A DNA stretch of 64,000 bases, from positions 24,345-88,344 of the forward strand of contig CAKTAA010000002.1 of the NCBI GenBank assembly GCA_934526185.1. The letters are read 5' to 3'. Made by a program: the position numbers and the translations under genes. Source of the stretch: an uncultured Eubacteriales bacterium (GTDB lineage: Bacteria; Bacillota; Clostridia; Oscillospirales; CAG-272). The notes beneath the pieces are model-generated. The model worked only from the letters and a program-made list of their open reading frames with translations. It was not told the origin of the DNA and ran no database searches. Shown one piece after another: positions 1 to 17,944 of the stretch. Every line of letters begins with the position of its first letter. Position 1 is the first letter of the stretch.

Positions 1-1326
1 TGCAGCGTCACCGATATAGCTTGCAAACGACATTCCTCTTCCGTGTATATTGACAATTATTGTATCTTTGATTTCTGTAAAGTATTGAATCCGTACGCTT
101 TCTGTTGAGTTATCGTACATGTTCCATATTAACAATGGATATTTGTTTTCCGGACTGAAATTATCCGGCAAACATACGTAATATTCAATATATGCATCGT
201 CTAATCGGGAGAAATAATAAAGATTTTTAATACCGCCCGAGTTCAGCCATTTATCATACTGTCCTGCCTCAATCAAATCGAGCTTTTTATTAAATTCAAA
301 CCAGGTATAAAAAACCCTGTGCGCAGCTTCGTCATATGTATACGCGTTTTTTAATTGATAGGTAATGTACGATATAGAATCATTGGAAAGCTTGCCGCAT
401 GCCAGTATCTTTTCCGCCCGCTCCTTGACGGGCTGTATATATCCTTTCGGCTTGGTTATATTTAACGGGAAAACAAACACTTTTTCTTCATTTTCGGTTG
501 TCCTGTACCGAATCGTAAACCGTAGATGCTGAAGCGGATTTTCTTGTCTGTATTTTAAATCAGCCACATTAATATTTATATTTTCATACAGCCTTGCTTT
601 AAAGGACAGTATTTTTTCATTTTTAAACGGCTCAATAACATCAATATCAAACACCGTATCGTTTCGCAGATGCACCGCATCAACAGGCGCTAAGGTGAAG
701 CTGAAGAAATCCTTATCATAACAGATTGCACTATAGGATTCATTGGATTCCATGTCAAACGCAGCGGTTATTTTTCCTTTTTCATAATGGTAATTATTAT
801 ATATAATGGATGCATATTTTTTCTTGTGCTCGTACTCAAACGTAGTAATCACAATGGTAGTTTTGAAGAAGGAGAGCGCTTGGTGCTGTTCAATACAAAA
901 GATATTACGTCCCTTTGTCAATCTGATGGTGTAAATAGGACGGCGTTCATGGTATTCCAAGCAGCAGAACGTACACAATTTGGAATTTATCCAAACCCGC
1001 TGCCGTGCGATAGATTCAATTGTAAATGTTACATTTGTGTCTTCATCGCATTCAACCAAAAAGAATGAATATACTTTTGAAATCGGCTCAAACTCAAATT
1101 TGCTGTAGTCAATTACAGATACCCCGGACTCAGTTGAAAAATCCATTATATCTGAGTCAGCAATGTTGCCGCTTATAACCATATCACGGATTTTATCAAT
1201 CGATTTAGGAACGGGAGCGATTTTTTCGAGTTGGAAATCATCGTCCGGAGGTTCTACAACGATTCCCATATATGCCGGATTTATTACACCTTGATTTGCA
1301 TAGTAAGTAATTTTTTCAATGTTCAT
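1..1326 (-). CDS. Large hypothetical protein, N-terminal 442 codons only (gene runs off the left edge). The visible C-terminal portion resembles the lead-in to an alpha/beta-hydrolase (S9-type peptidase/esterase) domain.
   Basis: Absent from the supplied ORF track because it is open at the window edge. I translated the reverse complement codon by codon from ATG 1326 to position 1 and found no stop: MNIEKITYYANQGVINPAYMGIVVEPPDDD ... IIVNIHGRGMSFASYIGDAA. RBS AGGGAGA lies at 1333-1339, 6 nt upstream. The segment YIEYYVCLPDNFSPENKYPLLIWNM...VNIHGRG resembles the region preceding the nucleophile elbow of secreted esterases/peptidases. The functional call is a guess. Confidence 0.6.
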   Translation of the reverse strand, partial: MNIEKITYYANQGVINPAYMGIVVEPPDDDFQLEKIAPVPKSIDKIRDMVISGNIADSDIMDFSTESGVSVIDYSKFEFEPISKVYSFFLVECDEDTNVTFTIESIARQRVWINSKLCTFCCLEYHERRPIYTIRLTKGRNIFCIEQHQALSFFKTTIVITTFEYEHKKKYASIIYNNYHYEKGKITAAFDMESNESYSAICYDKDFFSFTLAPVDAVHLRNDTVFDIDVIEPFKNEKILSFKARLYENININVADLKYRQENPLQHLRFTIRYRTTENEEKVFVFPLNITKPKGYIQPVKERAEKILACGKLSNDSISYITYQLKNAYTYDEAAHRVFYTWFEFNKKLDLIEAGQYDKWLNSGGIKNLYYFSRLDDAYIEYYVCLPDNFSPENKYPLLIWNMYDNSTESVRIQYFTEIKDTIIVNIHGRGMSFASYIGDAA

Positions 1327-1474
1327 CTTTATTCTCCCTGTGTAAATAATACATTGCTGTATGCATTCCGGATTCTTTCTCTTGGTTTTTTGGCTTGTAA
1401 TAGAATAAGATATGCTCTCCGTTTTGCGCACTGTCAGAACCTGTTGCTGCCGTTATTGCCGCGGCAGCCGTTTA

Positions 1475-2536
1475 TTACATCAAATCTCGGTTCGTTTTAA
1501 CTTTTGCCTTAGCACCGTCGGACAGCGACTGATAAAATTTTCCCGAAAAATCTTTATCAAACAAACGTTCCTCGAATGGGACCTCCCATTTTTTTCGTTC
1601 GGATTCGCACAATCCATAGAAGGGCGTGAGATCTGTTGCTTTCATCTTATCAAATAAATCGAGATACTCCGACGTGGTCGGATCGGCAAAAATATAGTTT
1701 GTAAAATACAGACAGTAGTGAATATAATCTGTTACGCCAAGCGTTCGGCACATTCCGGAAAGAAGGGCGGCGGAGGGGCTGCATGAGCGGAGATAGTACA
1801 GGATATCGCACAGGTGGGAAAGCTGCAATCCGCGGTCAGCGATAAGGTAGATGGAATTAAAATCTTTGTAATGATGCAGGCAAAGCGAGATAAACTCCAT
1901 TTCCGGTGAAAGTTTTTGAAAGAGCACACCGCACAGCTCCGCTTTTTCGGTGTGAGATAGCACGAAATCCATGTCGGCTTTCATGCTGCTCTCACCCCAC
2001 ATAATATCAAGATTCACATCCGCCTCGACAAACGGACAAAGCTTTTCGTCGGTTTTCTTGATAAATGGAGCTGTCTGATGGCTCATTGCAGATTGAAAGA
2101 CGAGCTCCCGACGCGTAAATTCTTTGACTTTACCGCCGCAGATTCGCCCCTGAACGAATCCGTTTCCCTTGAGAATATTTTTAACTGTGTCTATATCCTT
2201 ACGGCTGATCAGTATATCAATATCACCGGAGCACCGCATGAACGCATCGCCGTACGCCGCTGCGGAAAGCACGGCTCCCTTTATCACGGCGTATGGAATC
2301 CGCATTTCCTTAAAAGCATAAAACACTTTTTCGCAGGCACGGAACCGCTCATTTACATTGACTCTGCTCATAAATTTTTCGATTGTGACCTTGTTTGTTA
2401 AATCCGTCGAAAGAGGTATTTTCGAGAGCAGGTAAGTACACATATGTCTGTGCAAAATCTCTGATATATCCGTCTTTGGCATCTGTCCTGCAGCGATTTT
2501 GCGCAGCGCGGAAACGATGCTGCTGTAATCACTCAC
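1475..2536 (-). CDS. Nucleotidyltransferase family protein (uncharacterised NTP_transf_5-like type)
   Basis: 353-aa ORF. GTG start overlaps the upstream stop by 8 nt. Motif FMRCSGDIDILISRKDID (G-x-D-x-D nucleotidyltransferase fold signature) is followed by a helical C-terminal region. Same strand as, and coupled to, the radical SAM cluster. Confidence 0.7.
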   Translation of the reverse strand: MSDYSSIVSALRKIAAGQMPKTDISEILHRHMCTYLLSKIPLSTDLTNKVTIEKFMSRVNVNERFRACEKVFYAFKEMRIPYAVIKGAVLSAAAYGDAFMRCSGDIDILISRKDIDTVKNILKGNGFVQGRICGGKVKEFTRRELVFQSAMSHQTAPFIKKTDEKLCPFVEADVNLDIMWGESSMKADMDFVLSHTEKAELCGVLFQKLSPEMEFISLCLHHYKDFNSIYLIADRGLQLSHLCDILYYLRSCSPSAALLSGMCRTLGVTDYIHYCLYFTNYIFADPTTSEYLDLFDKMKATDLTPFYGLCESERKKWEVPFEERLFDKDFSGKFYQSLSDGAKAKVKTNRDLM

Positions 2537-3713
2537 TGATTTTCACCCCATTAGCAGAATAAAAATTCTCAAACCGAGCGTTTTTTTCAGTGCGGCGGTA
2601 AACACCGGCAATATTCCCATATCGCTTTTTTACTTCATCAATAAGAATCTTTTCGAAATCCCTGCCGAATACGCGGCAGGAAACAAAGAAGCTCTCGATT
2701 ACTGCCGGGTCACCCAGGCAAACCACCGCCAAGGCGACGATTCCCATATCGCCGTACTTATCCGAAGCAGAAAGCGAAATTATGCTGTATGAGCTGTCTC
2801 GCATAAGACCGGAGATTTCGTCCGCAGTATATCTCTTGCCGGACAAATTGAACTGGTTTGTGCGCATTGACAGCTCCGACAGCCTCTCCGCTTGGCCGAG
2901 AGCCGCGGTACCGCATTTTACACAGCTCCCGAGCGATGCATTATATTCGGCCACACTGGCACAGCGAAGCTTTTCCTTTTCGCGTTCCTTCTGATCGCGG
3001 TATTGCTTTGTCCGATTGATTTCAGAAGATGTACCGGCAAAAAACGATGCAATTTTTTCAGGAAATTCCCGATCGTCATACGAAACTTTAACAGCTGTCA
3101 CCTCGGGCAGCATAGCGTTTACAAGTCCGATTTCGTAGTCGCTGTCATCTATGAAAACAATGCTGTCCGTTGAAAGATTCAGTTCGCCGGCAATTTCACG
3201 AATGCTGTTTGGCTTGTCACCGTATCCGATTTTGGATATCACAAAATGCTCTGTATTGAGAAGCATATCGGGATTTTTAAAAACCTCCGTTATGATTTCG
3301 GGCTGATTTTTTGAGCACAGGCAAAGAAGTACACCGGCATTGTACAGCTTTATAAGCTCCGCCTGCAATGATTTTTCATCCGTTCCGATATGTATTTCTT
3401 CCTCACCGGCGATACCGTGCCAGAGCACATTATCGCAATCGGTAATCAGCACTTTTTTGAGCGCGGCAGACTGCTCAAAATATTTATCCAGAGTGGCAAA
3501 CAGATGGTCAAGTGTCTCAAAATTTGAAAACACAAGATCGCTGTCAAGCACTTCAATGCCGAACTGCTCCTCGATTGAAACGATAAACTGAATAAATTCA
3601 ATAGATGTGAGTCCGATGCCCAAAAGCGCGGCGCTTCCGGAGAGGCGATTGAGCTCTTCCGTATCCGCACCGGTGACGCTGGCGAGAATGCTTAATATTT
3701 TATACCTGTCCAT
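2529..3713 (-). CDS. Fusion of an acyl/peptidyl carrier protein domain with a FkbH-like HAD-IIIC phosphatase/acyl-loading domain
   Basis: 394 aa. The N-terminal ~80 aa are carrier-protein-like (LLGIGLTSIEFIQFIVSIEEQFG, Ser in the phosphopantetheine position). The HAD motif I follows in its FkbH form (VLITDCDNVLWHGIAGEE), then FIDDSDYE and the C-terminal RTNQFNLSGKRYT signature typical of FkbH/HAD-IIIC proteins. The ATG lies inside the upstream stop region (14-nt overlap), preceded by AGGGAGGA. Confidence 0.75.
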   Translation of the reverse strand: MDRYKILSILASVTGADTEELNRLSGSAALLGIGLTSIEFIQFIVSIEEQFGIEVLDSDLVFSNFETLDHLFATLDKYFEQSAALKKVLITDCDNVLWHGIAGEEEIHIGTDEKSLQAELIKLYNAGVLLCLCSKNQPEIITEVFKNPDMLLNTEHFVISKIGYGDKPNSIREIAGELNLSTDSIVFIDDSDYEIGLVNAMLPEVTAVKVSYDDREFPEKIASFFAGTSSEINRTKQYRDQKEREKEKLRCASVAEYNASLGSCVKCGTAALGQAERLSELSMRTNQFNLSGKRYTADEISGLMRDSSYSIISLSASDKYGDMGIVALAVVCLGDPAVIESFFVSCRVFGRDFEKILIDEVKKRYGNIAGVYRRTEKNARFENFYSANGVKISE

Positions 3714-4734
3714 TCATTTCCTCCCTTATGCTTTTTGTCAAACCGCATCCGACAAACTGTAATTTTCTGAATTCGCAGCCGTCGTCGTCACCGAGCGGAT
3801 TTCCCGTAAGCTGATCCGCATTCGCCATGCATCCTTTGCCGCAGGTATCACGAAGAATACACTTTGAGCACGAAAAATCGGATCCAACGCGCTCCTTTGC
3901 AAGCGACACGATCTTTGCCATTTTATCGTCGAATTCATTTTTATCGAACGAGAGTATATTGCCGACCGTGAATTTCCCGTCGTAAAGACCTTGACACGGC
4001 TGGATTGAGCCGTCAACCTTTATACAGACAGACAAAGTGTGTTCGGCGGAGAAAAGCGGGCACTTCACTGTGCATCTCGGCAGAAACGCTTTACATTCGA
4101 GCTCGGTATTGAGACGTTCGATGAGCTTCAGTGCCGCAAACTTTTCACGGGCAGTCAAGGCTTTATTCTCCCAATCGTCTGATCCGTTTCCTGATCTGTA
4201 GACGTATGCGAACTCCGGCGTGAAGCCGAGTGAACGGGCAAGCAGGTAAAACCTCTCAATATCTTCATAATTGTTCTTCGATATAACCATTTTCAGAAGG
4301 GGATTACCTTCGGTATTCCGTATGATTTGCGCGAACTCCATAGCCTTTTCAAAATTGCCTTTTCCGCGTGTAAGCGCGTTTGTTTCTTCGCATGCACCGT
4401 CAAGACTGATCTGCAGGGTGAGGTTGCTGTGCGAATTTACCGCGTCGGCGAGAGACTTTGTGCCGGTAGTTGCGTTGGTGACAATGCCGAACGAAAGATC
4501 GCTGTGCGTATCGATAAGCGACAGTACCTTGTCAAATTCAGTATGCAGCGTCGGTTCACCGCCCGAAAAAAGAAAACGGCGCGTGCCGAGCGGCAAGAGT
4601 GTTGCTATGATCCCCTCGATTTGAGAAAACGAAAGTTCGCGCCTTAGAAGATTCGTCCCGGAGCGGTTGTAGCAGGTGGCACAGTTCAGGTTGCATTGAT
4701 TTGTAATTTCAATATAGGCAGTCGATATTTTCAT
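3700..4734 (-). CDS. Radical SAM enzyme with C-terminal SPASM domain (peptide-modifying maturase type)
   Basis: 344 aa. CNLNCATC (CxxxCxxC) at residues 14-21, and the FSGGEPTL (GGE) motif. The C-terminal SPASM pattern is DGSIQPC ... CSKCILRDTCGKGC (Cx2Cx5Cx3C) ... C. ATGA start/stop overlap with the PqqD gene. Confidence 0.9.
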   Translation of the reverse strand: MKISTAYIEITNQCNLNCATCYNRSGTNLLRRELSFSQIEGIIATLLPLGTRRFLFSGGEPTLHTEFDKVLSLIDTHSDLSFGIVTNATTGTKSLADAVNSHSNLTLQISLDGACEETNALTRGKGNFEKAMEFAQIIRNTEGNPLLKMVISKNNYEDIERFYLLARSLGFTPEFAYVYRSGNGSDDWENKALTAREKFAALKLIERLNTELECKAFLPRCTVKCPLFSAEHTLSVCIKVDGSIQPCQGLYDGKFTVGNILSFDKNEFDDKMAKIVSLAKERVGSDFSCSKCILRDTCGKGCMANADQLTGNPLGDDDGCEFRKLQFVGCGLTKSIREEMNGQV

Positions 4735-4994
4735 ACTATCAGCACGACTTTCTTCTCTACGGTGTCCGCAAGGAATTCTTCAACATCGGCGCGGATATCG
4801 TCCGGCTCGGCGTCATAGATTTTGCACAGCTTGCCAAGCAGAGCGTCAAGCCCGCACGCTTCGTCGAGACACGTGAGAATATCGATTCCCGTCTCGTCAA
4901 ACAGGTGCGTGTCACCGCTTTCGGGATCGAATACCGCAAGCGACGTTTCGTCGGTCTGAATGTAATCCATTTTGTCATTCTTTTTGTAATGCAT
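4731..4994 (-). CDS. PqqD-family protein (RiPP recognition element / peptide chaperone)
   Basis: The C-terminal 80 aa (DYIQTDETSLAVFDPESGDTHLFDETGIDILTCLDEACGLDALLGKLCKIYDAEPDDIRADVEEFLADTVEKKVV) have the PqqD winged-helix pattern. The track ORF extends to 5144, but that would overlap the peptidase gene. I place the start at ATG 4994 (MHYKKNDKMDY...); ATG 4970 is also possible. Confidence 0.75.
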   Translation of the reverse strand: MHYKKNDKMDYIQTDETSLAVFDPESGDTHLFDETGIDILTCLDEACGLDALLGKLCKIYDAEPDDIRADVEEFLADTVEKKVVLIV

Positions 4995-5097
4995 GATTTT
5001 ACCTGAAACACACGCGAATGATGCGCGGTTTTCTTTCAAGAAAGCTCGGCAAAGAACTATAATAGATTTTACGAATAGAGTTTTTTGCGGAGCTTTT

Positions 5098-5553
5098 TCA
5101 AAAAACAACCGTGTTCTTGTCGTATGCGTTTCTTTTCCTTTCATATTCTTTGTAAATTTCGGTTTTTTTTGTTTTTGACGAGTTAAAGGCGCACTTGTGA
5201 AATTCGCGGTTCACAAGAAGCGACAGCTTTATAAGCTCTGCCGGATAATCTGGCAGAGCTTGTCCGTTTGACAATGCAGCTTTCCCGATTGTCTCTGACG
5301 CAGGAAAATCCTCGAGCCGAAACGCATTGTCACCCTTGCAGAAATATCTGCCGCCGCTGATTTTCAGAAGCCGGTGTACCAAAAGCGTACCCTTGTACAG
5401 AAACACCAGAATATCCCCGACCGCATAGCTGCTTTCCCGCACGACTGTAATGATGTCACCTTCAAAAAGCACCGGATTCATGCTTGAACCGGTCACAGTG
5501 ATTTCTGCAGTCCTGCCGGACGAAAGACGAGCCGCGAGAATTCCTGTCATCAT
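5098..5553 (-). CDS. S24/S26-family serine peptidase (signal-peptidase-I/LexA-like fold)
   Basis: 151 aa. GSSMNPVLFEGDII (the Ser nucleophile box G-S-S-M-x-P), then VHRL and CKGDNA (GDN box) as in S26 signal peptidases. No N-terminal TM anchor is evident. Confidence 0.7.
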   Translation of the reverse strand: MMTGILAARLSSGRTAEITVTGSSMNPVLFEGDIITVVRESSYAVGDILVFLYKGTLLVHRLLKISGGRYFCKGDNAFRLEDFPASETIGKAALSNGQALPDYPAELIKLSLLVNREFHKCAFNSSKTKKTEIYKEYERKRNAYDKNTVVF

Positions 5554-5557
5554 TTTG

Positions 5558-6352
5558 CTATCCGTTTTGTATCACCTCCGCGGCATATGCCATATCGCAG
5601 TATTTCAGACGCACGCAGTTTTCTTTTGCGAGACGCGACATGAGCTTCAGATATTCACCCGTTATCGGATACAGCGTAATCGGCGAGTGAAGCAGTTCGG
5701 TAAGCTTCTCCGTCGTTGTCATCGGCAGAACTGCATTTTCCGATGCAGTTCGCTCGATGAAAAATATCCTGCCGAGCGGAATAACTCTCGATACACAGTT
5801 TTCCGGAGTGAAAACATAACGGCGTGCTTCTTCTTCACCTGTTATGAAAAGCTCTTGCGGGGCAGCGTTGTATTCTCGCAGCACTGAAAGTCCCCCGTCC
5901 CGCAGATGCACCGGAGCGGTACACGGATGAATATCAAAGGTCGAGCGGTCGATAAGAATGCAGTCCTCGGCAACAAATCCGAAGCCAAGACTTAAAAGAT
6001 AGGTACAAAGCGTCGTTTTTCCGGAACTAGAGGACGCAAGAAAAAGGTATGCCCGTCCGCCGTATTCCACTGCCGCACCATGGAGCGCAAGAACGGATTC
6101 GTCATAGCGGTTGTTATCGAACAGATATTGATCTAAAATTCTCATCGGCTGAGTTGTGCGTTTTTTTTCTCCGTCAAGAACAACAGCAAATCCATCTGCG
6201 TTCTGCGTGACTGTTATATCAATTTCCGCTTCCTTTTCCGATTCACTTATGTATTTACCGAACTTAATTCGGAGGAATACGGCAAGTTCAATGCTGTCTG
6301 TTTTGATAGAGTACGATGTTTGATATGGTAAAGCAAGACGCAGTATCGGCAT
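5558..6352 (-). CDS. HPr kinase/phosphorylase-related kinase (HprK C-terminal-domain homologue)
   Basis: 264 aa. LHGAAVEYGGRAYLFLASSSSGKTTLCTYLLSLGFGFVAEDC matches the HprK catalytic core (lHG..v...G.gvLi.G.SG.GKS.l...L...G..lvaDD) with its P-loop. It is the first gene after the promoter. RBS GGAGA is 5 nt upstream. Confidence 0.75.
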   Translation of the reverse strand: MPILRLALPYQTSYSIKTDSIELAVFLRIKFGKYISESEKEAEIDITVTQNADGFAVVLDGEKKRTTQPMRILDQYLFDNNRYDESVLALHGAAVEYGGRAYLFLASSSSGKTTLCTYLLSLGFGFVAEDCILIDRSTFDIHPCTAPVHLRDGGLSVLREYNAAPQELFITGEEEARRYVFTPENCVSRVIPLGRIFFIERTASENAVLPMTTTEKLTELLHSPITLYPITGEYLKLMSRLAKENCVRLKYCDMAYAAEVIQNG

Positions 6353-6385
6353 AGTATTCTCCGTTCAGAAAAAAATGGTAAACAC

Positions 6386-6414
6386 ATTATACAACATAAT
6401 TCACGAATATTCAA
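6386..6414 (-). promoter_or_regulatory. Sigma-A-type promoter of the radical SAM/kinase operon
   Basis: The minus strand reads TTGAAT - 17 nt - TATAAT (revcomp of 6409-6414 and 6386-6391), about 30 nt upstream of the kinase ATG. Confidence 0.6.
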
Positions 6415-6571
6415 CATATATTATTTAGTTGCTGCTGGAAATATTTTTGAGTAACACTTGATATTTTAAATTTACATGCTATTTTCATCATAAATAAGAA
6501 GAGCTAGAAGTTTAGAAAATGGCATCCGTCGAGATCTTCCTTGGGTGGTGATTATTCGCTTTTCGGCAAAA

Positions 6572-6674
6572 GTGGTGCGGCCGATGATAGTCTTTTACGG
6601 AAAGTCTCTATAGGGAAAATTTTGAAAAAAACCTATAGAAAAGTTTATGAATTAACCATCATCGACCGCACCAG
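6572..6674. repeat. Nested inverted repeat (outer 19-nt arms, inner 8-bp palindrome arms)
   Basis: Outer arms are GTGGTGCGGCCGATGATAG (6572-6590) and CCATCATCGACCGCACCAG (6656-6674): 8 + 7 bp with one C:A mismatch. Inner arms are TCTATAGG (6607-6614) and CCTATAGA (6632-6639) around an A/T-rich 17-nt loop. It lies between the divergent operon promoter and the XRE gene. Confidence 0.6.
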
Positions 6675-6731
6675 CTAAAACAAATCAAGGAAAACTGCTA
6701 TCGAATGATTGATTTTTAACGGAAGTGTGAA

Positions 6732-6971
6732 ATGATAAATTATCTACTCTGCGGAGGCGTGGCTGTAAGTTACAAACTTTTTCATTTAATGATCGAGCGG
6801 GATATTGCCAATGCTCAACAAATGTGGGATGCAGACATCCCTACAAATATTATTACAAAATTGAAAAACGGTCAGTATTATAGCCTTGGACAAGGTACAA
6901 GCATCTGCCCCGCCCTAAACTGCGGCGCTGACGATATACTGGAATTTGTGTCGAATGCTCCAAAAGACTGA
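6732..6971 (+). CDS. Small XRE-family helix-turn-helix transcriptional regulator
   Basis: 79 aa. YKLFHLMIERDI...IPTNIITKLKNGQYYSLGQGTSICPALNCGADDILEFV follows the short Cro/C1-type pattern (..L..LM.Er.i....L....gIs..tIskLkNG..vsl.tl.kIC.aLnC...DIlEFv) common on mobile elements and next to R-M genes. Confidence 0.6.
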   Translation: MINYLLCGGVAVSYKLFHLMIERDIANAQQMWDADIPTNIITKLKNGQYYSLGQGTSICPALNCGADDILEFVSNAPKD

Positions 6972-6984
6972 TGGAGGAAAAAGG

Positions 6985-8080
6985 ATATGGACAACCAAAT
7001 ACATAATATAAGTGGGGTATTGCGGGTGACTCTCTGTGTGGCAATTCATGCGTGGCAAATACCGTGATGTTATTCTGCCCATGTCAGTTAATCGCCGCTT
7101 GGACACTATGCTTGAGGGCATCAAGGCTGCGGTTTTCGAAATGAAGAAAAAGTTGGATGAAGTGGGAATCGACAATCAGTGGCCTGCACTCTGCAATGCA
7201 GCAGGACAGGCTTTCTGCAATGATCTACGTTTTTGCTCAGGGATCTTACCAGCAGCACAAAGATATAGACACCCAAGGATGACTTTGAATCTTATTTGGG
7301 CGTTTTTTCCAATGTGCAGAAAATCCTAGAAAAATTCAAATTCCGCAACCAGATTCATTCGATGAACGATGCGGTTATTCTGAGCAGTGTTATTGAGAAA
7401 TTTATCTCCTTAGCCATCAATCTCAGCCCTAATCTGGTTATAAGGACGAAGAGAGAACGATTCTGAGGCATCAGTGTCTGGAAAATCATGGAGCGGGTAT
7501 GATCCTTGAGAGCTCATCCGTAAGTTCAACGAAGAGGCCGGTGTGCACAGGACGCCCCATGATGTTGCGGAACTGGTGGCAGACCTCATCTTTATGCCGG
7601 TCGCCGACCAAATCAAGGATGCAAACCTCTTCCTACTATGACGGAACATGCGGAACCGGCGGTATGCTTACCGTGGTGTAGAACGCTTGCTGACTCTGGG
7701 CGGGGCAAAAAAGTTTCTATCCATCTGTTCGGGCGGGAAATCAACCCAGAGACTTATGTCATCTGTAAGGCAAATATGCTTTTAAAGGGTGAAAGCGAAC
7801 AGGCTGAATACATCATTTATGGTTCTGCGCTTTCTATGGACGGTAATGCCTCCTGGCAGTTTGATTTTATGCTTTCCAATCCTCCTTACGGCAAGAGCTG
7901 GGCAAACCGCCGCTGAAAAGATGTGCGGTAAAAAAGTGATTTTGGACAGCCGTTTTAATGCCTATCTTGAGGGCGGATACCCGCTTACCATGTTTCCGAA
8001 GGGCAGTGATTGGCGTTGCTGTTCCTGCTGAACAATGTTGCCAAAATGAAAAAAGACTCGCTGCCGGCAGCCGCATACGT
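6985..8080 (+). pseudogene. Decayed N6-adenine DNA methyltransferase (type I HsdM-like), multiply frameshifted and 3'-truncated
   Basis: RBS GGAGGA plus ATG 6985. Homology is scattered over three frames: LRGKYRDVILPMSVNRRLDTMLE (7036 frame), KILEKFKFRNQI.., HFTPRDV-like/ADLIFMPVADQIKD, YDGTCGTGGMLTV (SAM-binding motif I, 7499/7638 frames), VSIHLFGREINPETYVICKANMLLKGE, FDFMLSNPPYGKSW (motif IV NPPY), then DGQLLFLLNNVAKMK-like remnants to about 8075. No hsdS or hsdR follows. Confidence 0.8.
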
Positions 8081-8313
8081 CCATGTGGGAAGGTATAGAT
8101 GAAAAGAAAAGCTCTCCCGTGGGATTTCCTGCGAAATTCAGAACAGCGGCTTTTTTACCGGGCAGTACGACAATATCCCGTAACCTTGCCTCTCACTCCG
8201 AAGATCGTCATGCTTCTGTCTGCGTTTTGACGGACTTGCTCCGGTTTTACCGCCGCCAGTTCATGGCGGCGCAGGCATGCGGCACGGGCAAAGGTGAGTA
8301 TATCCGCGTTGCT

Positions 8314-8491
8314 TTATCTTGAAAAGCCATAGTCGCGGGTAACTTCATTTCGGCTTCGCTGAATATCTTTCCGCCGCTGTTCGGAAAGCAGAATCGCCAA
8401 ATCGCCTGCCTTGCAGCCGTAAAGATTACACAATGCGGAATTGGTTTTGCGGGACTTCCTGCACTTGCCGCACCAGAGATTTGTGTTTCAT
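8314..8491 (-). pseudogene. Frameshifted fragment of a small HTH (XRE-like) gene
   Basis: The minus strand gives MKHKSLVRQVQEVPQNQFRIV* in one frame. It continues in another frame as ..KTNSALCNLYGCKAGDLAILLSEQRRKDIQ..*, which resembles the C-terminal half of Cro/C1 HTH proteins (..LC.aL.C...DL). Weak call. Confidence 0.3.
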
Positions 8492-9101
8492 TTTGCACCA
8501 CTCAGAAAAAGAGCGCACCTTGTTTGGGTAGGTAAGTTGACGAGATTTTTAGACAGCTTTCCGGTGCTGTTTTCCCGATTTCAAGGCCTTTTAAAAATTT
8601 CACTCCACTGCCGTTGGCAGTTCCGCTTCTCCAGAAATTTAAAAAATCGCCGGACAATCGTTCTGTTCGTGTTCGCTCCACAGTACGCCGCTCCCGCGCA
8701 TTACCCATGTCGCTCGTCTCTCCCACACCCGGTGGAAAAGACGCACAGTCTTTTCGGGCTTGCTGTGCTGACTTCGAACCTTTTAGCCGCCGTTATCGTC
8801 AAGGCAGGCTGCTACTTTCCACTCCTTTCATCATTCAAACCTCTATCTTTAATATGACGGATGGTGAACTTTCTTAAAAACGCAAAAAAGCGGTGTCCTC
8901 TTATAAGGGGACGCCGCCCGCAGCACCTGTCCTACGAAAGGTTCGAAATTTCGTCAGGCGGCAAGGCTGGGAATCTTCCGAATGGTCCGGCTTGCTTCCA
9001 TTTTTTTCATCGCACTTCCATCTTTGTCTTTTTCAGCTTCATTCTCCGTTGAAGCTTTTCCCGCCTCACTTTTAATATGACAGATATTGAATAAAATGAA
9101 C

Positions 9102-9128
9102 GCGCAGACGGAAATTTTCCGTCTGCGC
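9102..9128 (+). terminator. Palindromic hairpin with T-run (intrinsic-terminator-like) and no intact upstream gene
   Basis: GCGCAGACGGA-aattt-TCCGTCTGCGC followed by ATTTTTCTTTTC. Its core is nearly identical to the hairpin at 10031-10064. Confidence 0.45.
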
Positions 9129-9828
9129 ATTTTTCTTTTCTTATGCCCGCTTCCCCTTCTGCTCTTAACGTCCTTATTAAGCAGAGGGACGTTGTTGGTT
9201 TGTTTTTTATATTGCAAAATAAATTTATTTTTTTCTATTTTTACAAATGTACGGTAGTTTTTAACTGCGATTTTCTATACATTTTTCAAATTGCATGAAA
9301 CAATAATTATATAAATAATATAAATATATTTTCAATACAAACTTTTATCTAAAAATGAGAGATGGTGAACAAAACAGCTCCTTGTATATTTCGAGCTGAT
9401 TCCCCTTCATTGTTACACTTCACAATATTTTTTCAGCATGGAATAAATTACTTCGAAACATTTACTTAATACTGTTCAGCACTGTTCGCTGCTGGTTTCG
9501 TGTTTTTATCAAATTCGCCTTGATCATCAAAGAAAGATGATAATACGCATTCATACCCGTGAAACCAAGCTCCTACTCGATGGCATTTATGGTTGCCTCC
9601 TTTTTTGTCTGGATAAGATCAAGAATTTCAAAACGTTTTTTTCGAGAGGGTATCGCGAAGGCCTCAAGCGCGGCATTCTGTTCTATTGTATCAATGAACT
9701 AATAAATTCATGGAAAAGTCGAGCGTTTTTTTAAAAAGTTAACAGTTTTGCACTAAAAATTTTCGAAACGGGGTTTTATCGCCTGTTTTGAGAGGTAAAA
9801 CGTATTGCGCGAGGCGGAATATAGTGGA

Positions 9829-9971
9829 AAAAATGGGAAAATTAAGAGAAAAAGGGAATGTTTAAAATAAAATCGGGAGAACCTGGCGTTCCGCCAAGGG
9901 GATGGGATAGAAATTTTGGCAGGGATTGGACGAGAGACTGGGGATTGGCGAAATGCCAAGAGGGGATTTCA
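9829..9971 (+). repeat. Degenerate iteron-like array: GGGA(T) motifs with ~19-24 bp spacing
   Basis: GGGA cores start at 9835, 9854, 9875, 9898/9904, 9922, 9941 and 9963. Sub-families are GCCAAG(A)GGGGAT (9894-9903; 9955-9967) and GGGATTGG (9922-9929; 9941-9948). The strand is strongly purine-rich. Confidence 0.5.
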
Positions 9972-10020
9972 AGCATATATAAATAGGAAGCTTGTGGAAG
10001 CCAGCCAGTTCTGGGCTTAC

Positions 10021-10064
10021 ATACAAAACACCCCACCGCAGACGAATTTTCGTCTGCGGTGGGG
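10021..10064 (-). terminator. Probable intrinsic terminator of the sigma-factor gene
   Basis: 15-bp perfect stem CCCCACCGCAGACGA / TCGTCTGCGGTGGGG with a 4-nt loop. On the minus strand it is followed by TGTTTTGTAT. It lies ~180 nt downstream of the stop at 10247. Confidence 0.6.
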
Positions 10065-10246
10065 TACCGTTAAAGCTTGCATCCATCAAATTCGTTTAAC
10101 AAACGAATAGGCCGAACATCTTACCAATGGTAAAGAGGTTCAACCTATTCAAAATAGGTGCACTTGAGCATTCTGTAATCGAACCGTGCACTTCTTTTAG
10201 AGTGACGGTTGTACGCACTTCGTTGTAATTAAAGGCTCGAACCAGC

Positions 10247-11857
10247 CTATTCTAAGTAAATGTGTGCACCAATTGCGGGACTTACTTTAGTTGCAGGAAG
10301 CAAGTAACCGGAATTTAGCGCCTCTGACATAACATATCCGCGACGGAAATAACAAGTTGAAACTGCCAACCTGCATTGATAGATGTCATCTAAAAAGACT
10401 TTAGGAAGATCAGCACAAACCATCCCATAGATCTCATCATACAAGCCTTTCATCATATCTTTTGCACTTTCCGCTAATACCGAGAGCTCAGATACCACGC
10501 TTGTGTCCATATTATTAACCGTATTCCTAATCTCATCCATATTCAGCGTTACAATAGTTGGAATATATGAGTTTTCTGTTTTTTTCAAGTATCCATAATC
10601 TAATAGATTTTTAATAAGCTCACGTTTTCCTTCTACTTTTTTGCCCAACACAATATCGCACAGAACCTGCGATTCTTCATCGGTAAGATAATCCGGTGTG
10701 TTGGCGGAAATACCGTCGAACTCATATCTAAAATGCTGAAATCCGTGATTACTTCCGTGATTTCCAACAAAATTAGGTTCTGTTACATGACAGTCCTGAT
10801 ATCCAATGATGTCCCATCGTCCGTTGTCAGGACGCTTGGTAAAATCACGATTTCTTGGTGCTTTGTATATAAAGTAGTCAAATGCCAGCATGAGAAGCGA
10901 CCATTTCGCACTTTCATAATCCTGATGTGCCCCGTAAAAATTCTTTCCTTGCATTACAAATGCGTCATTCAGGCTATCCACAAAAGTCGTCAACGCTTTT
11001 GTTATCGAAGGCGCAGCAGTTAACCAAGCAATATGAGTTTGTTCTTGTGCAGCGCAGCTTATGATTGGAAAGGACGTTTGATATTTATTCTCGGTTTTTA
11101 TCAAAAATGTTTCACGGGTGAGCCACTCAAGTTCATCTTCCATGTAAGGGAGAGCAATACCTAACTCCAAGGAAAGTTCTTCGGCTTTCGATGGATTTCC
11201 ATATGATTCCAACAGTACGTTTTTGTACAGTTTGTGTTCCATTACGTTGTAGGGCTGATTTTTGTCACCGGGACGAGAGCAATTACTACAAAAAGTTACT
11301 TCATCCGGTTTATAGCTTCTTACTCCAAATTCTCTTGACATATCCATACCTTCTTTCAATATAATTCGTGCGCGGTGAAGTCTTTGTTGAACCGCGCTTA
11401 CCGAAAGTGAGAGCGGCGATGAAATATCGCGAACGCTTTTGTTCTCTAAATAATAGGCGACGACAATGTTGCGATAATCGCTTTTGATGAACGCCAGCTC
11501 CCGCCGAAGCAGAGCCATCTGCTCTGTTTGTATCATTTCATCAAGGGTATTTTCGCTTTCGTCTTTAATCTCAAAATCACTGATATCGGAACCGGTTACC
11601 GATTTGTTTCGATTGTGCCTTTCTTTTGCCCATACCGAATAACGGTTGCGCGCGATCTGCCATATCCATGCTGAAAAGTTTGTAGGAACCGTGCCTTTAT
11701 TTAAAGCTATGATAATCTGGACCGCAATATCCTGCGTCAAATCTTCCGCTTCAATATTACTCCCCGTTTTTTTCAGACAGAAGTAAAACAGCTTTTCCAT
11801 ATAGTTATCGGTAAAATCATTGATATGCCGATCACGCATTCCATTCGCTTCTTTCAT
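10247..11857 (-). CDS. Sigma-70 family (ECF-like) RNA polymerase sigma factor with a ~350-aa C-terminal extension
   Basis: 536 aa. Region 2 (AEDLTQDIAVQIIIAL ... WIWQIARNRY) and region 4 HTH (YYLENKSVRDISSPLSLSVSAVQQRLHRARIILKE) lie within the first ~180 aa. The remaining ~350 aa are an unassigned domain. RBS AGGGGGG. Confidence 0.8.
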   Translation of the reverse strand: MKEANGMRDRHINDFTDNYMEKLFYFCLKKTGSNIEAEDLTQDIAVQIIIALNKGTVPTNFSAWIWQIARNRYSVWAKERHNRNKSVTGSDISDFEIKDESENTLDEMIQTEQMALLRRELAFIKSDYRNIVVAYYLENKSVRDISSPLSLSVSAVQQRLHRARIILKEGMDMSREFGVRSYKPDEVTFCSNCSRPGDKNQPYNVMEHKLYKNVLLESYGNPSKAEELSLELGIALPYMEDELEWLTRETFLIKTENKYQTSFPIISCAAQEQTHIAWLTAAPSITKALTTFVDSLNDAFVMQGKNFYGAHQDYESAKWSLLMLAFDYFIYKAPRNRDFTKRPDNGRWDIIGYQDCHVTEPNFVGNHGSNHGFQHFRYEFDGISANTPDYLTDEESQVLCDIVLGKKVEGKRELIKNLLDYGYLKKTENSYIPTIVTLNMDEIRNTVNNMDTSVVSELSVLAESAKDMMKGLYDEIYGMVCADLPKVFLDDIYQCRLAVSTCYFRRGYVMSEALNSGYLLPATKVSPAIGAHIYLE

Positions 11858-13033: not shown

Positions 13034-13065
13034 AAAAAAAACGACCGCTTATGTGGTCGTTTTTT
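13034..13065. terminator. Bidirectional terminator hairpin between the SGNH gene and tRNA-Leu
   Basis: AAAAAAA-ACGACC-gcttatgt-GGTCGT-TTTTT: A-run and T-run flank a 6-bp GC stem. Confidence 0.55.
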
Positions 13066-13151
13066 GGTGCGGGTAAGAGGACTTGAACCTCCACGAAGTT
13101 GCCCCCACTAGAACCTGAATCTAGCGCGTCTGCCAATTCCGCCATACCCGC
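13065..13151 (-). tRNA. tRNA-Leu (anticodon CAG)
   Basis: The reverse complement folds as a class II tRNA. Acceptor stem GCGGGTA/TACCCGC with encoded ACCA; D-arm GGCGGAATTGGCAGACGC; anticodon arm CTAGA-TTCAGGT-TCTAG (CAG); long variable arm; GGTTCAAGTCC T-loop. 87 nt. Confidence 0.9.
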
Positions 13152-13252: not shown

Positions 13253-13337
13253 TGGTGCGAGAAACGGGACTTGAACCCGTATGGTATTCACCACACGCCC
13301 CTCAAACGTGCGCGTCTGCCAGTTCCGCCACTCTCGC
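13253..13337 (-). tRNA. tRNA-Leu (anticodon GAG)
   Basis: Acceptor stem GCGAGAG/TTCTCGC plus ACCA; anticodon arm CACGT-TTGAGGG-GCGTG (GAG); long variable arm; GGTTCAAGTCC T-loop. 85 nt. Confidence 0.85.
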
Positions 13338-16309: not shown

Positions 16310-17944
16310 ATGAAACTGCGAAAAACATCTTGGAAGAAATCTTTTATCAAACAAGCACGTATTGTTTTGATAGGTATGCTTGTGGTGACGCTGCTTTTGC
16401 CTTGTTTGATTTTTCCCGTTTCCGCACTTAATTATGCCGATGTTCCGTCTACTTATTGGGCATACCCCTATATTGACGAAGTGACTGACCGCGGCATTAT
16501 GGAAGCATATACGGGGAATTATTTCAGGCCTTCCTACGCGATGACAAGGCTGTCTGCCGTTACGGCGCTTGGAAAGCTTGCGGGCGTTTATCCCAATGAC
16601 AATTGTTCCTCGGACTTTACGGATATGCCGTCCGGCACGACTGGATTGGCTTATGTTATGTGGGCTAAGGAAAACAATATTGTAAACGGCACGACTGCGA
16701 CGACCTTTTCGCCCAACCTGAATATTACAAAAGAGTCGTTTGCCGTTATGATATACAATTTCCTTGTTGCATTTAATCATTCATACACACGGAGCACGAC
16801 GGCTGCTTTCAGCGACCAGGCGGAAATATCCCCATGGGCGTTGGATGCAGTAAAAGAGCTTCATGCAATCGGATTGGTGAGCGGGGACGAACATAACAAT
16901 TTCGAGCCGGATCATGCGCTTCTTCGCTCGGAGGCGGCAGTCGTATTCTCGCAGATTCCGAGTTGTACCACCTTGACAAACGGTATATGTTCCATAAAAA
17001 ACTCTTCCACTTCGAGATATATGACCGTTAAAAATACGGCATTAGGTTATACCGGATTGAATACGACGGCCAACAACTATATTGTAACGGAAGCTGTTGA
17101 TAACAGTCGCGGCGCGCAGTATTTCAGATTTACCCAAGACCTTGAAACAGGCTACTTTAACATTGCTCCGCTATGCAGCTTCTTCGGCTTTTACAGACAG
17201 CTTCAATCAACAGGATACGGCGCCGGCAATTCTGTTCTTACTGCTGTGCCGCAGGATTCCAACTATATGCGGTTCATTCCCGTACAGGTCGGCCCGAGAT
17301 ATCAGTTCGTTTTGGCTGCCAATCCAAATGTTGCGTTGGCTGATGTAGGCGGTTATGTGAAGCTGAAGGCGAAAAATACAAGCGACACCTCGCAGCTTTG
17401 GAATGTATATACCAAAACGGCCATTAAAAATGCAGAGACGGAATATCGGAGCTTGAAATGGGCGCACCCGCTTGAAAATCCTTCAAATTATTATTTGACC
17501 TCTTCGTTCGGCTTTCGGTATTTGCCGGAGGTGTACGGATATGCAGACCCTTGCCGGATGCATGCCGGAGTAGACCTTTCTGCGCCTACCGGTACAAAGC
17601 TTGTGGCGGTTGCGGACGGAGAAATTGAATATAAGGAACACGAGGCGTTGGGATTGTATGCGGTGCTAACTCCGTCGGATTCCCCCGGCGTTTTGGCGGT
17701 TTATCAACACATGAGCGTACAAGAAATCGAAGACCCCGAGGGGGTTATACGTCCGCCCGGCGATATGTCTGTGGACAAGGGGCAATGCATCGGCTTGTCC
17801 GGCAGTTCCGGCGTAGGGACGGGGGCGCATCTGCATTTCGGTGTAGTGTATGACATAGCGGATGTGGCAAAGGAGGGTGACTTTGATACGTTCTTTTATC
17901 CCAACGCGTTCTACGGCCGGTACGTTAACGGCTTCTGGAGCTGA
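16310..17944 (+). CDS. Secreted cell-wall protein: three SLH repeats, a ricin-B-like lectin region and a C-terminal M23 metallopeptidase
   Basis: Signal peptide (KQARIVLIGMLVVTLLLPCLIFPVSA). SLH repeats (YADVPSTYWAYPYIDEV.., FTDMPSGTTGLAYVMWAKENNIVNG.., FSDQAEISPWALDAVKELHAIGLVSG). A QxW-type motif (TSQLWNV). M23 motifs HAGVDLSAPTGTKLVAVADGEI and GAHLHFGV. Confidence 0.85.
   Translation: MKLRKTSWKKSFIKQARIVLIGMLVVTLLLPCLIFPVSALNYADVPSTYWAYPYIDEVTDRGIMEAYTGNYFRPSYAMTRLSAVTALGKLAGVYPNDNCSSDFTDMPSGTTGLAYVMWAKENNIVNGTTATTFSPNLNITKESFAVMIYNFLVAFNHSYTRSTTAAFSDQAEISPWALDAVKELHAIGLVSGDEHNNFEPDHALLRSEAAVVFSQIPSCTTLTNGICSIKNSSTSRYMTVKNTALGYTGLNTTANNYIVTEAVDNSRGAQYFRFTQDLETGYFNIAPLCSFFGFYRQLQSTGYGAGNSVLTAVPQDSNYMRFIPVQVGPRYQFVLAANPNVALADVGGYVKLKAKNTSDTSQLWNVYTKTAIKNAETEYRSLKWAHPLENPSNYYLTSSFGFRYLPEVYGYADPCRMHAGVDLSAPTGTKLVAVADGEIEYKEHEALGLYAVLTPSDSPGVLAVYQHMSVQEIEDPEGVIRPPGDMSVDKGQCIGLSGSSGVGTGAHLHFGVVYDIADVAKEGDFDTFFYPNAFYGRYVNGFWS

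Follow-up and report, generated by a model that had tools for sequence, protein, structure and literature searches.

Gene content and organization of the locus

The window analysed here, the whole stretch of 64,000 nucleotides from contig CAKTAA010000002.1 of an uncultured Eubacteriales bacterium, carries near its left end a minus-strand operon (6352..1475) whose six open reading frames (ORFs) are closely packed or overlapping in the ORF list. This operon is probably an intact copy of a conserved, non-lasso cassette for maturing peptides that are synthesized on ribosomes and modified after translation (RiPPs), whose precursor and regulator genes were recently lost. Domains were called by scans against Pfam and NCBIfam (release 20), in which the bit score of each match was compared with the cut-off of the model. 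The genes of the operon and the features next to it are as follows.

5558..6352, minus strand: kinase-like P-loop protein, predicted HprK/PEPCK fold, 'ScmC-like' (264 amino acids, aa)
5098..5553, minus strand: S24/S26 peptidase, soluble, probably of the Sec11/SipW type (ORF of 151 aa, called as 150 aa)
4731..4994, minus strand: PqqD-type RiPP recognition element (RRE) (87 aa from MHYKK; the ORF reaches 5144)
3700..4734, minus strand: radical SAM/SPASM peptide maturase (344 aa; no RRE domain of its own)
2529..3713, minus strand: fusion of an acyl carrier protein (ACP) with FkbH (394 aa: N-terminal carrier, HAD-IIIC phosphatase, FkbH C-terminal region)
1475..2536, minus strand: NTP_transf_5 nucleotidyltransferase-fold protein, here called NTase (353 aa; SGDIDIL motif)
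1..1326, minus strand: the first 442 codons (5' part) of a gene for an 857-aa protein, past the NTase gene and leaving the window at its left edge
6386..6414, minus strand: promoter-like site (TTGAAT-17-TATAAT), at a distance of 34 nt upstream of where the kinase gene starts

The ORFs of the six enzymes are all intact. Compared with the nearest complete relative, the ratio of non-synonymous to synonymous substitution rates (dN/dS) is 0.04–0.23, the PqqD gene having a value of 0.04 and being called as an 87-aa gene on contigs with an identical cassette. Such contigs number at least 12; they come from different samples and show at least two different upstream contexts. The promoter-like site agrees with the consensus at 10 of 12 positions and lies in a stretch that is homologous to the related loci L016 and L006; as a consensus match only, it is regarded as a putative promoter. 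An initial annotation of this DNA had named five of the gene types, and the Pfam and NCBIfam scans found each of them where it had been placed. It overlooked the sixth gene, the ACP-FkbH fusion at 3713..2529, and neither the absence of a precursor gene nor the loss of the regulator was noticed in it.

Properties of the encoded proteins

The kinase-like protein matches its sequence models weakly. The best score, 39.9 bits (E 2.5e-10) with NCBIfam HprK_rel_A, aligns only residues 86–162 and falls far short of the cut-off of 200, so the protein is not placed in that family, of which a Vibrio control protein scores 323.9. ScmC gives 27.4 bits (E 2e-6; cut-off 125), the HprK_rel_B and HprK models also match far below their cut-offs, Pfam Hpr_kinase_C reaches only E 0.024, and a weak precomputed match to PF27840 (ScmC) exists. 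A lasso kinase probe matches the protein at 27.3 bits. Since these matches are weak, the structure was modelled with AlphaFold (pLDDT 94.3). Among solved structures, Foldseek related the model to ATP-PEPCK (E 6e-6, TMq up to 0.60) and to HprK/P (E 3e-4, TMt 0.41–0.47), and on this predicted fold the protein belongs to the PEPCK/HprK P-loop superfamily. Its Walker A motif is SSSSGKTT; across 30 kinase homologues the pattern HG...GK.TL...D.C and a GK[TS] P-loop are invariant. Searches of PDB sequences with the kinase and the NTase returned only noise.

The peptidase matches Pfam Peptidase_S24 (36.7 bits, cut-off 23.3), and its best NCBIfam model is the archaeal signal peptidase sigpep_I_arch, at 39.4 bits below the cut-off of 51.85. 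SEC11C (E 0.008) is its only PDB relative by sequence. The motifs GSSMNP, VHRLL and KGDN..D, which contain the SM, HR and GDN elements, were read by eye. In most homologous loci the peptidase is fused to PqqD as a protein of about 240 aa, while the window copy has separate genes. Because the relatives' precursors have an AAA junction and the two proteins are physically fused, an RRE-guided leader peptidase seems the most economical reading of this putative Sec11/SipW-type enzyme, which would then act as the leader peptidase of the cassette. The AAA junction agrees with the -3/-1 rule that describes cleavage sites of type I signal peptidases.

The PqqD protein of the window matches Pfam PqqD (44.2 bits) and passes NCBIfam PqqD_rel_X, the 'HPr-rel-A system PqqD family peptide chaperone' (44.8 bits, cut-off 35); with lasso_PqqD_Strm it scores 20.7 bits (cut-off 70). 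The lasso B1 probe from Priestia matches 11 related PqqD ORFs and not the window copy (E<=0.1). The PqqD gene overlaps the start codon of the radical SAM gene at 4731–4734. The radical SAM enzyme matches Pfam Radical_SAM (74.8 bits), with the CX3CX2C motif as CNLNCATC at residues 14–21 and the SPASM motif CX2CX5CX3C near the C-terminus as CSKCILRDTCGKGC. Both cysteine motifs and an adjoining PqqD gene are thus found, as in a radical SAM/SPASM maturase with a separate RRE. Its best NCBIfam match is the mycofactocin maturase (106 bits, full-length), followed by StsB and ScmE, all below their cut-offs. The closest PDB relatives by sequence are SkfB and PqqE.

The ACP-FkbH protein scores 221.6 bits with TIGR01686 FkbH (cut-off 146.65), 52.8 with TIGR01681 HAD-SF-IIIC (cut-off 35.75) and 31.6 with Pfam PP-binding (cut-off 20.8). 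The domains of a glyceryl-ACP loading enzyme are therefore all present: FkbH, HAD-IIIC with its motif I (DCDNV) and a carrier. With these domains the protein would turn 1,3-bisphosphoglycerate into glyceryl-S-ACP. FkbH is classically an enzyme of polyketide extender units. The NTase matches Pfam PF14907 NTP_transf_5 (100.6 bits, cut-off 31.2) and no NCBIfam model; its SGDIDIL motif is invariant among the NTases compared. Its AlphaFold model (pLDDT 94.1) has Foldseek matches to MenT1, ANT(2''), LnuA, TM1012 and FKRP, so that the modelled structure is a Pol-beta-type nucleotidyltransferase fold.

The 857-aa gene downstream is open throughout. On contigs with an identical cassette it continues left of the window and is followed by two ATP-binding cassette (ABC) exporter genes, over about 6 kb; the full gene and the ABC pair are present on L004 (the gene at 7527–10100), L005 and L016. 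Its GC content is 0.37, against 0.45–0.50 for the cassette. No Pfam family was found in the protein, only a weak Peptidase_S9 match over residues 450–492, and a word-indexed search of 5.8 billion proteins gave no homologue. Among the related loci, homologues of about 800–900 aa lie near the cassette in six (L016, L024, L028, L046 and others).

Absence of lasso core enzymes

The kinase, the NTase and PqqD have counterparts in lasso peptide clusters, and we searched for the remaining lasso enzymes with probes from the Priestia aryabhattai pB2.3 cluster (C, A, K, B1, B2, D), a plasmid record. A second cluster (N, C, A, K, B1, B2, D) was taken from a plasmid record of Paenibacillus cellulosilyticus. 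These lasso sequences came from tblastn matches on plasmids; all 150 kinase representatives among the matches listed belong to the cassette's own family. The related loci, numbered L001–L058, were covered with flanks up to 10 kb. When the whole window, translated in six frames, and the ORFs of these loci were searched with phmmer, neither the Priestia lasso cyclase (646 aa, SGGLDS) nor its B2 protease (159 aa) gave a match. Moreover, the PP-loop motif SGGxDS is absent from 9073 ORFs, and the gene calls of identical or related contigs contain no Pfam Asn_synthase match.

The operon 6352..1475 is not a lasso cluster. The initial annotation had reported no C or B2 protein between 1 and 6414, and this holds for the whole 64 kb. 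It had also named a C/B2 pair just past the left edge as the finding that would overturn its reading; none occurs within about 6 kb beyond that edge. In place of the lasso enzymes it saw a radical SAM/SPASM enzyme and an S24/S26 peptidase, and both domains were confirmed. The roles of leader protease and macrocyclase have plausibly been taken over by the S24 peptidase and the radical SAM/SPASM enzyme, respectively. As a side observation, the lasso HPr-kinase homologue of Priestia aryabhattai pB2.3 (L069, 7659–8594) is labelled 'aldolase' in RefSeq, probably a misannotation.

Distribution of the cassette in gut Clostridia

At least 200 kinase homologues with 40–53% identity were found in a database clustered at 90% identity, and the family forms 185 clusters at 50% identity (E<=1e-30). 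We compared the gene contexts of divergent members and of 38 loci from species-representative genomes. The host genomes are nearly all uncultured Oscillospiraceae, Ruminococcaceae, Acutalibacteraceae and other gut Clostridia. The common order is kinase, S24-PqqD, radical SAM, ACP-FkbH and NTase, with the ABC pair either after the NTase or between the radical SAM and FkbH genes. Among 44 non-redundant loci the kinase is found in 37, the radical SAM enzyme in 36, the regulator described below in 33, the NTase in 32, FkbH in 26 and the ABC genes in 20. This order is shared by dozens of divergent loci, whose kinases are 35–53% identical to that of the window, and the arrangement is therefore not due to chance.

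The kinase goes with PqqD, the radical SAM enzyme and the precursor, and the NTase goes with ACP-FkbH. In fact, L032, L054 and the distant L056/57 possess kinase, PqqD, radical SAM enzyme and precursor and no FkbH or NTase, and Clostridium perfringens plasmids carry a contiguous NTase-VOC-ACP-FkbH block. Since the kinase occurs without the NTase, and the NTase with ACP-FkbH, what had been described as a kinase/NTase/RRE triad consists of two sub-modules. The ABC pair often divides the kinase half from the NTase half. In L014 the FkbH and NTase genes are fragmented.

A Clostridium beijerinckii genome (GCA_027687085.1, L067, 10001–11062) has an NTase of 47% identity among transposases of the IS66, IS21, IS110 and Mutator types. 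It was rejected as a full cassette; the gene is isolated and appears to be a stranded cassette fragment, here in a species that is cultured. Phage-type integrases lie near the cassette in four loci. Two tRNA-Leu genes (CAG, GAG) are located in the window at 13065–13151 and 13253–13337 on the minus strand, about 7 kb from the cassette, and in L011 a tRNA-Pro gene is 400 nt from the precursor gene. The cassette may reside on tRNA-targeting islands.

In the literature library that was searched, no paper joins HPr kinase with radical SAM RiPPs, none ties FkbH to RiPPs and none describes this cassette; a 2014 survey mentions HPr kinase for lasso clusters only.

Precursor peptides of the related loci

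In the relatives the cassette is adjoined by a 334–351-aa protein with a C-terminal ArsR-type winged helix, the regulator, and then by an ORF of 35–42 aa. A hidden Markov model (HMM) was built from six of these short peptides and run for two rounds. As a result, we obtained 27 distinct peptides of the main family, and precursors in 29 loci when the sister loci L056/57 are included. Wherever a locus was inspected, the precursor gene was the immediate neighbour of the regulator gene. The consensus consists of the leader MKxWKKPxxxTLxAxELSxHIKAAA followed by the core (R/W/Y)S-x1-5-C-x4-(F/Y/L)-R. Of the 27 precursors, 26 have the serine that follows AAA, and 24 of 27 cores contain a single cysteine. 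In 24 of the 26 full-length cores this cysteine precedes the basic residue at the terminus by exactly 6 residues. None of the precursors matches an NCBIfam model.

Compared with lasso precursors, which are marked by YxxPxL, Thr(-2), Gly/Ala/Ser/Cys at core position 1 and Asp/Glu at 7–9, these peptides have only the (W)xxPx-hydrophobic start in common: the leader ends in AAA, there is no Thr at -2, and the cores hold no conserved Asp/Glu lactam acceptor. The start is nevertheless similar enough for the lasso precursors beginning MKKEWKKPELEVLDV and MSKKNWQAPVVEALEI to score 12.3 and 11.4 bits on positions 1–13 of the precursor model, against 6.7 bits for the best of 4423 random segments. Judged from sequence, the KKxWxxP start corresponds to the lasso YxxPxL leader motif. 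In lasso systems YxxPxL is bound by B1, and the action of the kinase depends on B1 (PMC10368454).

Two loci types depart from this layout. L019 has two precursor genes with different cores, at 8584–8712 (minus) and 17760–17879 (plus), which flank the cassette on both sides; one of the two peptides runs four residues past the usual C-terminal Arg (…DFRSINY). In L012 (4371–8663, minus) and L013 a second maturation system lies across the same precursor gene. It comprises a 444-aa radical SAM/SPASM enzyme (TIGR04463-like), an 82-aa ACP, a fusion of an S8 protease with a TIGR04066-type domain, and two ABC genes. The L012 peptide may be common to, or contested by, two radical SAM systems.

Loss of the regulator and the precursor

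The nearest complete relative is L016/L017, whose kinase is 86% identical and whose DNA is 88.5% identical over window 6482..1. In L016 the regulator lies divergently upstream of the cassette and the precursor is MKKIWNKPVITSFKASEISKCIKAAAISWDLNCPGDLR. Homology to L016 stops at window 6482 and homology to L006 at 6505. Beyond this point the window contains the following features.

6506..9418: unrelated DNA filling the gap from cassette to regulator remnant, where relatives carry the regulator and precursor genes
6732–6971, plus strand: intact HTH_26 (Cro/C1-type) gene of 79 aa (Pfam)
about 7036–8100, plus strand: frameshifted N6_Mtase fragments, a restriction-modification remnant (precomputed matches on identical contigs)
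9419..9688, minus strand: pseudogene remnant of the ArsR-type regulator (residues about 258–334 of 334; internal stop and frameshift)

The regulator remnant is a 265-bp piece of the 3' end (9688..9424; the stop-containing fragment is also given as 9647..9419). It lies about 3 kb from the cassette, in the orientation opposite to that in L016. It is 80.8% identical to L016 798–1036 over 239 nt by blastn, and tblastn gives 78% aa identity (E 9e-23). Homology ends a few bases short of the regulator's stop codon (window 9424), and past the remnant the precursor region of L016 could not be aligned (score 16, shuffles 13.3 +/- 2.2). A 536-aa protein with sigma-70 regions 2 and 4 in its N-terminal part and a long C-terminal part is encoded just past the remnant, at 10247–11857 (minus).

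We then looked for a precursor in the window. No precursor was found by tblastn with the six relatives' peptides, nor anywhere in the 64 kb by the precursor HMM run on all stop-to-stop segments of at least 15 aa together with a C-terminal regular expression. The same model and pattern gave no precursor on the identical-cassette contigs L003–L007. A 21-aa ORF, MKGNQLEIYKELFCSPSLIFR, lies directly after the regulator remnant at the expected precursor site (9343–9408, minus), has one cysteine and ends in xFR. It was rejected as a precursor: it scores -1.9 bits with the HMM, and its DNA cannot be aligned to the L016 precursor gene.

In other metagenomes the identical cassette is preceded by a 332-aa serine recombinase with Resolvase and Recombinase domains (L006, 175–2182; L007, 1096–3109; L009, 2–2006), and the regulator is left on these three contigs only as an N-terminal remnant of 58–60 aa. 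Apparently the same junction (about 6505) was disrupted a second time, independently. We therefore favour a cassette that is structurally intact but recently orphaned of its regulator and precursor. Because the enzymes and the promoter-like site remain while the substrate gene is absent, it is most likely without a product here, unless the genome encodes a precursor at some other place.

Proposed pathway and alternative explanations

For the complete relatives a pathway can be outlined, every chemical step of which is inferred by analogy. The PqqD domain would bind the precursor of 35–40 aa through the lasso-like (W)xxPx-hydrophobic leader motif. The radical SAM/SPASM enzyme would crosslink the core, most likely between its only Cys and one residue in the invariant C-terminal segment C-x4-(F/Y/L)-R, either by an SkfB-like thioether or by a C-terminal reaction like that of the mycofactocin maturase. 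The HprK/PEPCK-fold protein would phosphorylate a hydroxyl group, for which the Ser at core position 2 is the best candidate. The ACP-FkbH protein would load itself with a glyceryl unit from 1,3-bisphosphoglycerate, and the NTase-fold enzyme would add a further group, on the phosphate as PsmN does in pseudomycoidin and possibly with glyceryl-ACP. Finally, the PqqD-tethered Sec11/SipW-type peptidase would cut off the leader after A-x-A, and the paired ABC transporters, homologues of lasso D, would export the product.

That the window holds such a cassette, intact yet deprived of its precursor and regulator, is the likely explanation, and several points weigh against it. The type of crosslink, the target of the kinase, the role of glyceryl-ACP and the substrate of the NTase are analogies. 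The kinase-like protein may not be a kinase of proteins or peptides, given its 16–18% identity to lasso kinases and its marginal similarity to HprK, and lasso kinases act on a C-terminal Ser, but the peptides of this family have a C-terminal Arg. The L012 precursor has the second radical SAM system next to it as well, which makes the pairing of enzyme and substrate ambiguous there. The 64 kb covers only part of the genome, so a precursor may be encoded in trans; L021, L025 and L045 likewise have no precursor nearby. The low dN/dS, moreover, mostly reflects the time before the loss.

Some of these points suit a cassette that still functions here, with a precursor of the same family, or some other peptide, elsewhere in the genome and constitutive expression after loss of the regulator. 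The six ORFs are intact and occur unchanged on the contigs of different samples and upstream contexts counted above, their dN/dS is low, the promoter-like site has been kept, L021, L025 and L045 lack the regulator as well as the precursor in their available flanks, and the second precursor gene of L019, about 1.3 kb from the cassette on its other side, indicates that precursor genes can be dispersed. We nevertheless consider a functional cassette unlikely, though well worth keeping in mind. No family member or look-alike exists in the 64 kb; 29 loci have the precursor inside the flanks retrieved, beside the regulator gene in those inspected; two apparently independent rearrangements at the same junction each removed it; and decayed relatives are known, namely the L014 fragments and the lone NTase of C. 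beijerinckii. Far less probable, at the bottom of the scale, is an ordinary large lasso cluster with its cyclase and B2 outside the inspected interval. Paeninodin-type clusters do contain a homologous kinase, NTase, PqqD and ABC exporter, and the relatives' precursors share their leader start with lasso precursors, but the C and B2 probes match nothing in the window, in the roughly 6 kb past its left edge or in 58 loci, no SGGxDS is found, and the cores have neither Thr(-2) nor a conserved Asp/Glu acceptor. For the DNA available the lasso reading is refuted. Nor is it at all probable that the kinase-like protein, NTase, ACP-FkbH and ABC proteins decorate something other than a peptide, for instance a polymer of the cell surface or some small molecule. 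This would agree with NTP_transf_5 genes in small-molecule contexts on Bacillus and Streptomyces plasmids, with the polysaccharide genes adjoining the kinase-like gene and NTase of Parasedimentitalea, with FKRP among the fold matches of the NTase (a LicD/FKRP-like fold) and with the classical role of FkbH. However, PqqD, radical SAM/SPASM enzymes and leader-type peptides accompany the kinase in most loci, PqqD is fused to the peptidase, and the leader motif of the peptide is of the RRE type and its core is strongly patterned; a non-peptide substrate might apply to the NTase/FkbH half only.

Returning to the orphaned cassette, a bolder extension is that the family makes an unknown class of RiPP, a peptide of 9–14 residues with a radical SAM macrocycle from Cys to the C-terminus and with phospho-Ser and glyceryl decoration, which arose as a chimera of a lasso system. 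It would have kept a leader of lasso type together with the RRE, kinase, NTase and exporter, and replaced the cyclase and protease by a radical SAM enzyme and an RRE-fused, signal-peptidase-like protease. We put this forward tentatively, as a proposal that could well fail in one or more of its parts; if true, it would be the first glyceryl-ACP chemistry on a ribosomal peptide. The family itself, which has no name, occurs widely among gut Clostridia of humans and animals. It raises testable questions, including how an HprK/PEPCK-fold protein acts on a peptide without C-terminal Ser, why NTP_transf_5 pairs with ACP-FkbH, and whether an RRE-fused Sec11-type peptidase serves as leader peptidase; the C. 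perfringens plasmid clusters offer a cultured and genetically tractable host. For cluster-mining pipelines the window copy is a caution, as its biosynthetic genes are intact and its substrate gene is absent.

Comparison with known systems

The closest comparison is with lasso clusters of the paeninodin/pseudomycoidin type, which resemble the cassette in the kinase-like protein, the PqqD RRE, NTP_transf_5 and the ABC exporter. The leaders of the relatives' precursors start with MKKxWKKP, like the lasso precursors of Priestia and Paenibacillus. In the family, 58 kinase ORFs are matched by the lasso kinase probe, with a best E of 3e-10, and 46 ABC ORFs by lasso D. The window cassette differs in having a radical SAM/SPASM enzyme and a Sec11/SipW-type peptidase instead of the cyclase and B2, with ACP-FkbH added, and the relatives' cores end in Arg without a lactam acceptor, whereas lasso kinases use a C-terminal Ser. 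In paeninodin and pseudomycoidin, K phosphorylates Ser and N adds a hexose to the phosphate (PMC8498205).

Trees of the kinases and NTases were built by neighbour-joining; being small and unrooted, they show separateness and not the direction of descent. The radical SAM-associated kinases are monophyletic (100/100 bootstraps), the two lasso kinases pair together (100/100), and the C. perfringens kinase groups with the latter (82/100). The window kinase is 16–18% identical to lasso kinases and 19–24% to proteobacterial HprK_rel_A-like proteins, and hence no nearer to the former. Family NTases and the NTase of the C. perfringens plasmid form a clade (60/60), with identities of 16% to the lasso NTase and 14% to the Vibrio NTase. 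The separate clades with their own conserved neighbourhood, which the initial annotation had proposed to look for, are therefore present. Its wider ideas survive in modified form. The kinase, PqqD, NTase and exporter are indeed re-used together with a shared leader start, as expected of a portable tailoring module, but as two sub-modules and not as one triad. The label of lasso accessory enzymes is justified by the homologues in paeninodin-type clusters and is too narrow, for the same genes also occur in non-lasso contexts. As for radical crosslinking in place of lasso folding, the radical SAM/SPASM enzyme is present and C and B2 are absent, but the chemistry of the product is only inferred.

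The SynChlorMet (SCM) cassette, TIGR04248–TIGR04251, follows the same logic of an HprK-like protein, a PqqD homologue and radical SAM/SPASM enzymes. The window proteins score below all four models (ScmC 27.4 bits against a cut-off of 125, ScmD 17.4 against 100, ScmE 82.9 against 400, ScmF 71.3 against 400). Moreover, the window cassette has one radical SAM gene where SCM has two, adds the peptidase, ACP-FkbH and NTase, and is found in different taxa. Because the SynChlorMet models foreshadow this architecture, the cassette is not categorically new.

In the HPr-rel-A system (TIGR04352/TIGR04353) a kinase-like protein occurs with NTP_transf_5 and a PqqD-type protein and without lasso enzymes. 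The HPr-rel-A locus on a Vibrio alfacsensis plasmid (HprK_rel_A, 324 bits) differs from the cassette in having no radical SAM enzyme, peptidase or FkbH. Here (L061, 7581–10660) the HprK_rel_A gene overlaps the NTP_transf_5 gene, with no lasso or radical SAM genes within 9 kb; upstream are an ORF of 84 aa that carries no annotation and a protein of 274 aa whose signal (SRRRFIRSAA) is twin-arginine-like. The 84-aa ORF could not be confirmed as a PqqD partner, as it has no PqqD match in Pfam or NCBIfam.

Mycofactocin MftB/MftC and PQQ PqqD/PqqE are alike in combining a radical SAM/SPASM enzyme of about 340 aa, without RRE, with a small PqqD gene beside it. PqqE aligns over its full length to the window enzyme, and the mycofactocin score of 106 bits compares with an equivalog cut-off of 265. 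The C-terminus of the mycofactocin precursor MftA is strongly conserved, as is that of the relatives' precursors. The precursors are nevertheless unrelated, and the cassette has no mycofactocin or PQQ accessory genes. With loading enzymes of the FkbH/OzmB type the window protein shares the FkbH domain, the HAD DxDxV motif and the attached carrier; it differs in lying in a RiPP-type cassette without polyketide synthase, ketosynthase or hydroxymalonyl/methoxymalonyl tailoring genes.

Thirteen C. perfringens plasmid records of 56 kb match the NTase with 35–37% identity, of which one (NZ_CP148590.1) was inspected.

NZ_CP148590.1, 48864–56015 and 1–5769 (L059/L066): related C. perfringens cluster

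This cluster contains radical SAM/SPASM enzymes, an S24 peptidase (signal peptidase I), PqqD, Hpr_kinase_C, two ABC proteins, NTP_transf_5 (37% identical) and FkbH, and an unannotated precursor-like ORF at L066 8784–8936 reads MSKKKYVKPTLKTVKVDKAVMVAASRSGMGNCKITFLS. It differs from the window cassette in three radical SAM genes (one fused to PqqD), a separate ACP and an additional VOC protein; the last residue of its peptide is Ser, and its kinase falls with the lasso kinases. Further afield, NTP_transf_5 lies beside sugar-nucleotide, ACP, decarboxylase and adenylating enzymes on Bacillus and Streptomyces plasmids, and in Parasedimentitalea a kinase-like gene and NTase lie by polysaccharide genes without lasso or radical SAM genes. 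Taken together, modules appear to be exchanged between RiPP classes, with shared parts that serve either a lasso cyclase/protease pair or a radical SAM/signal-peptidase pair.

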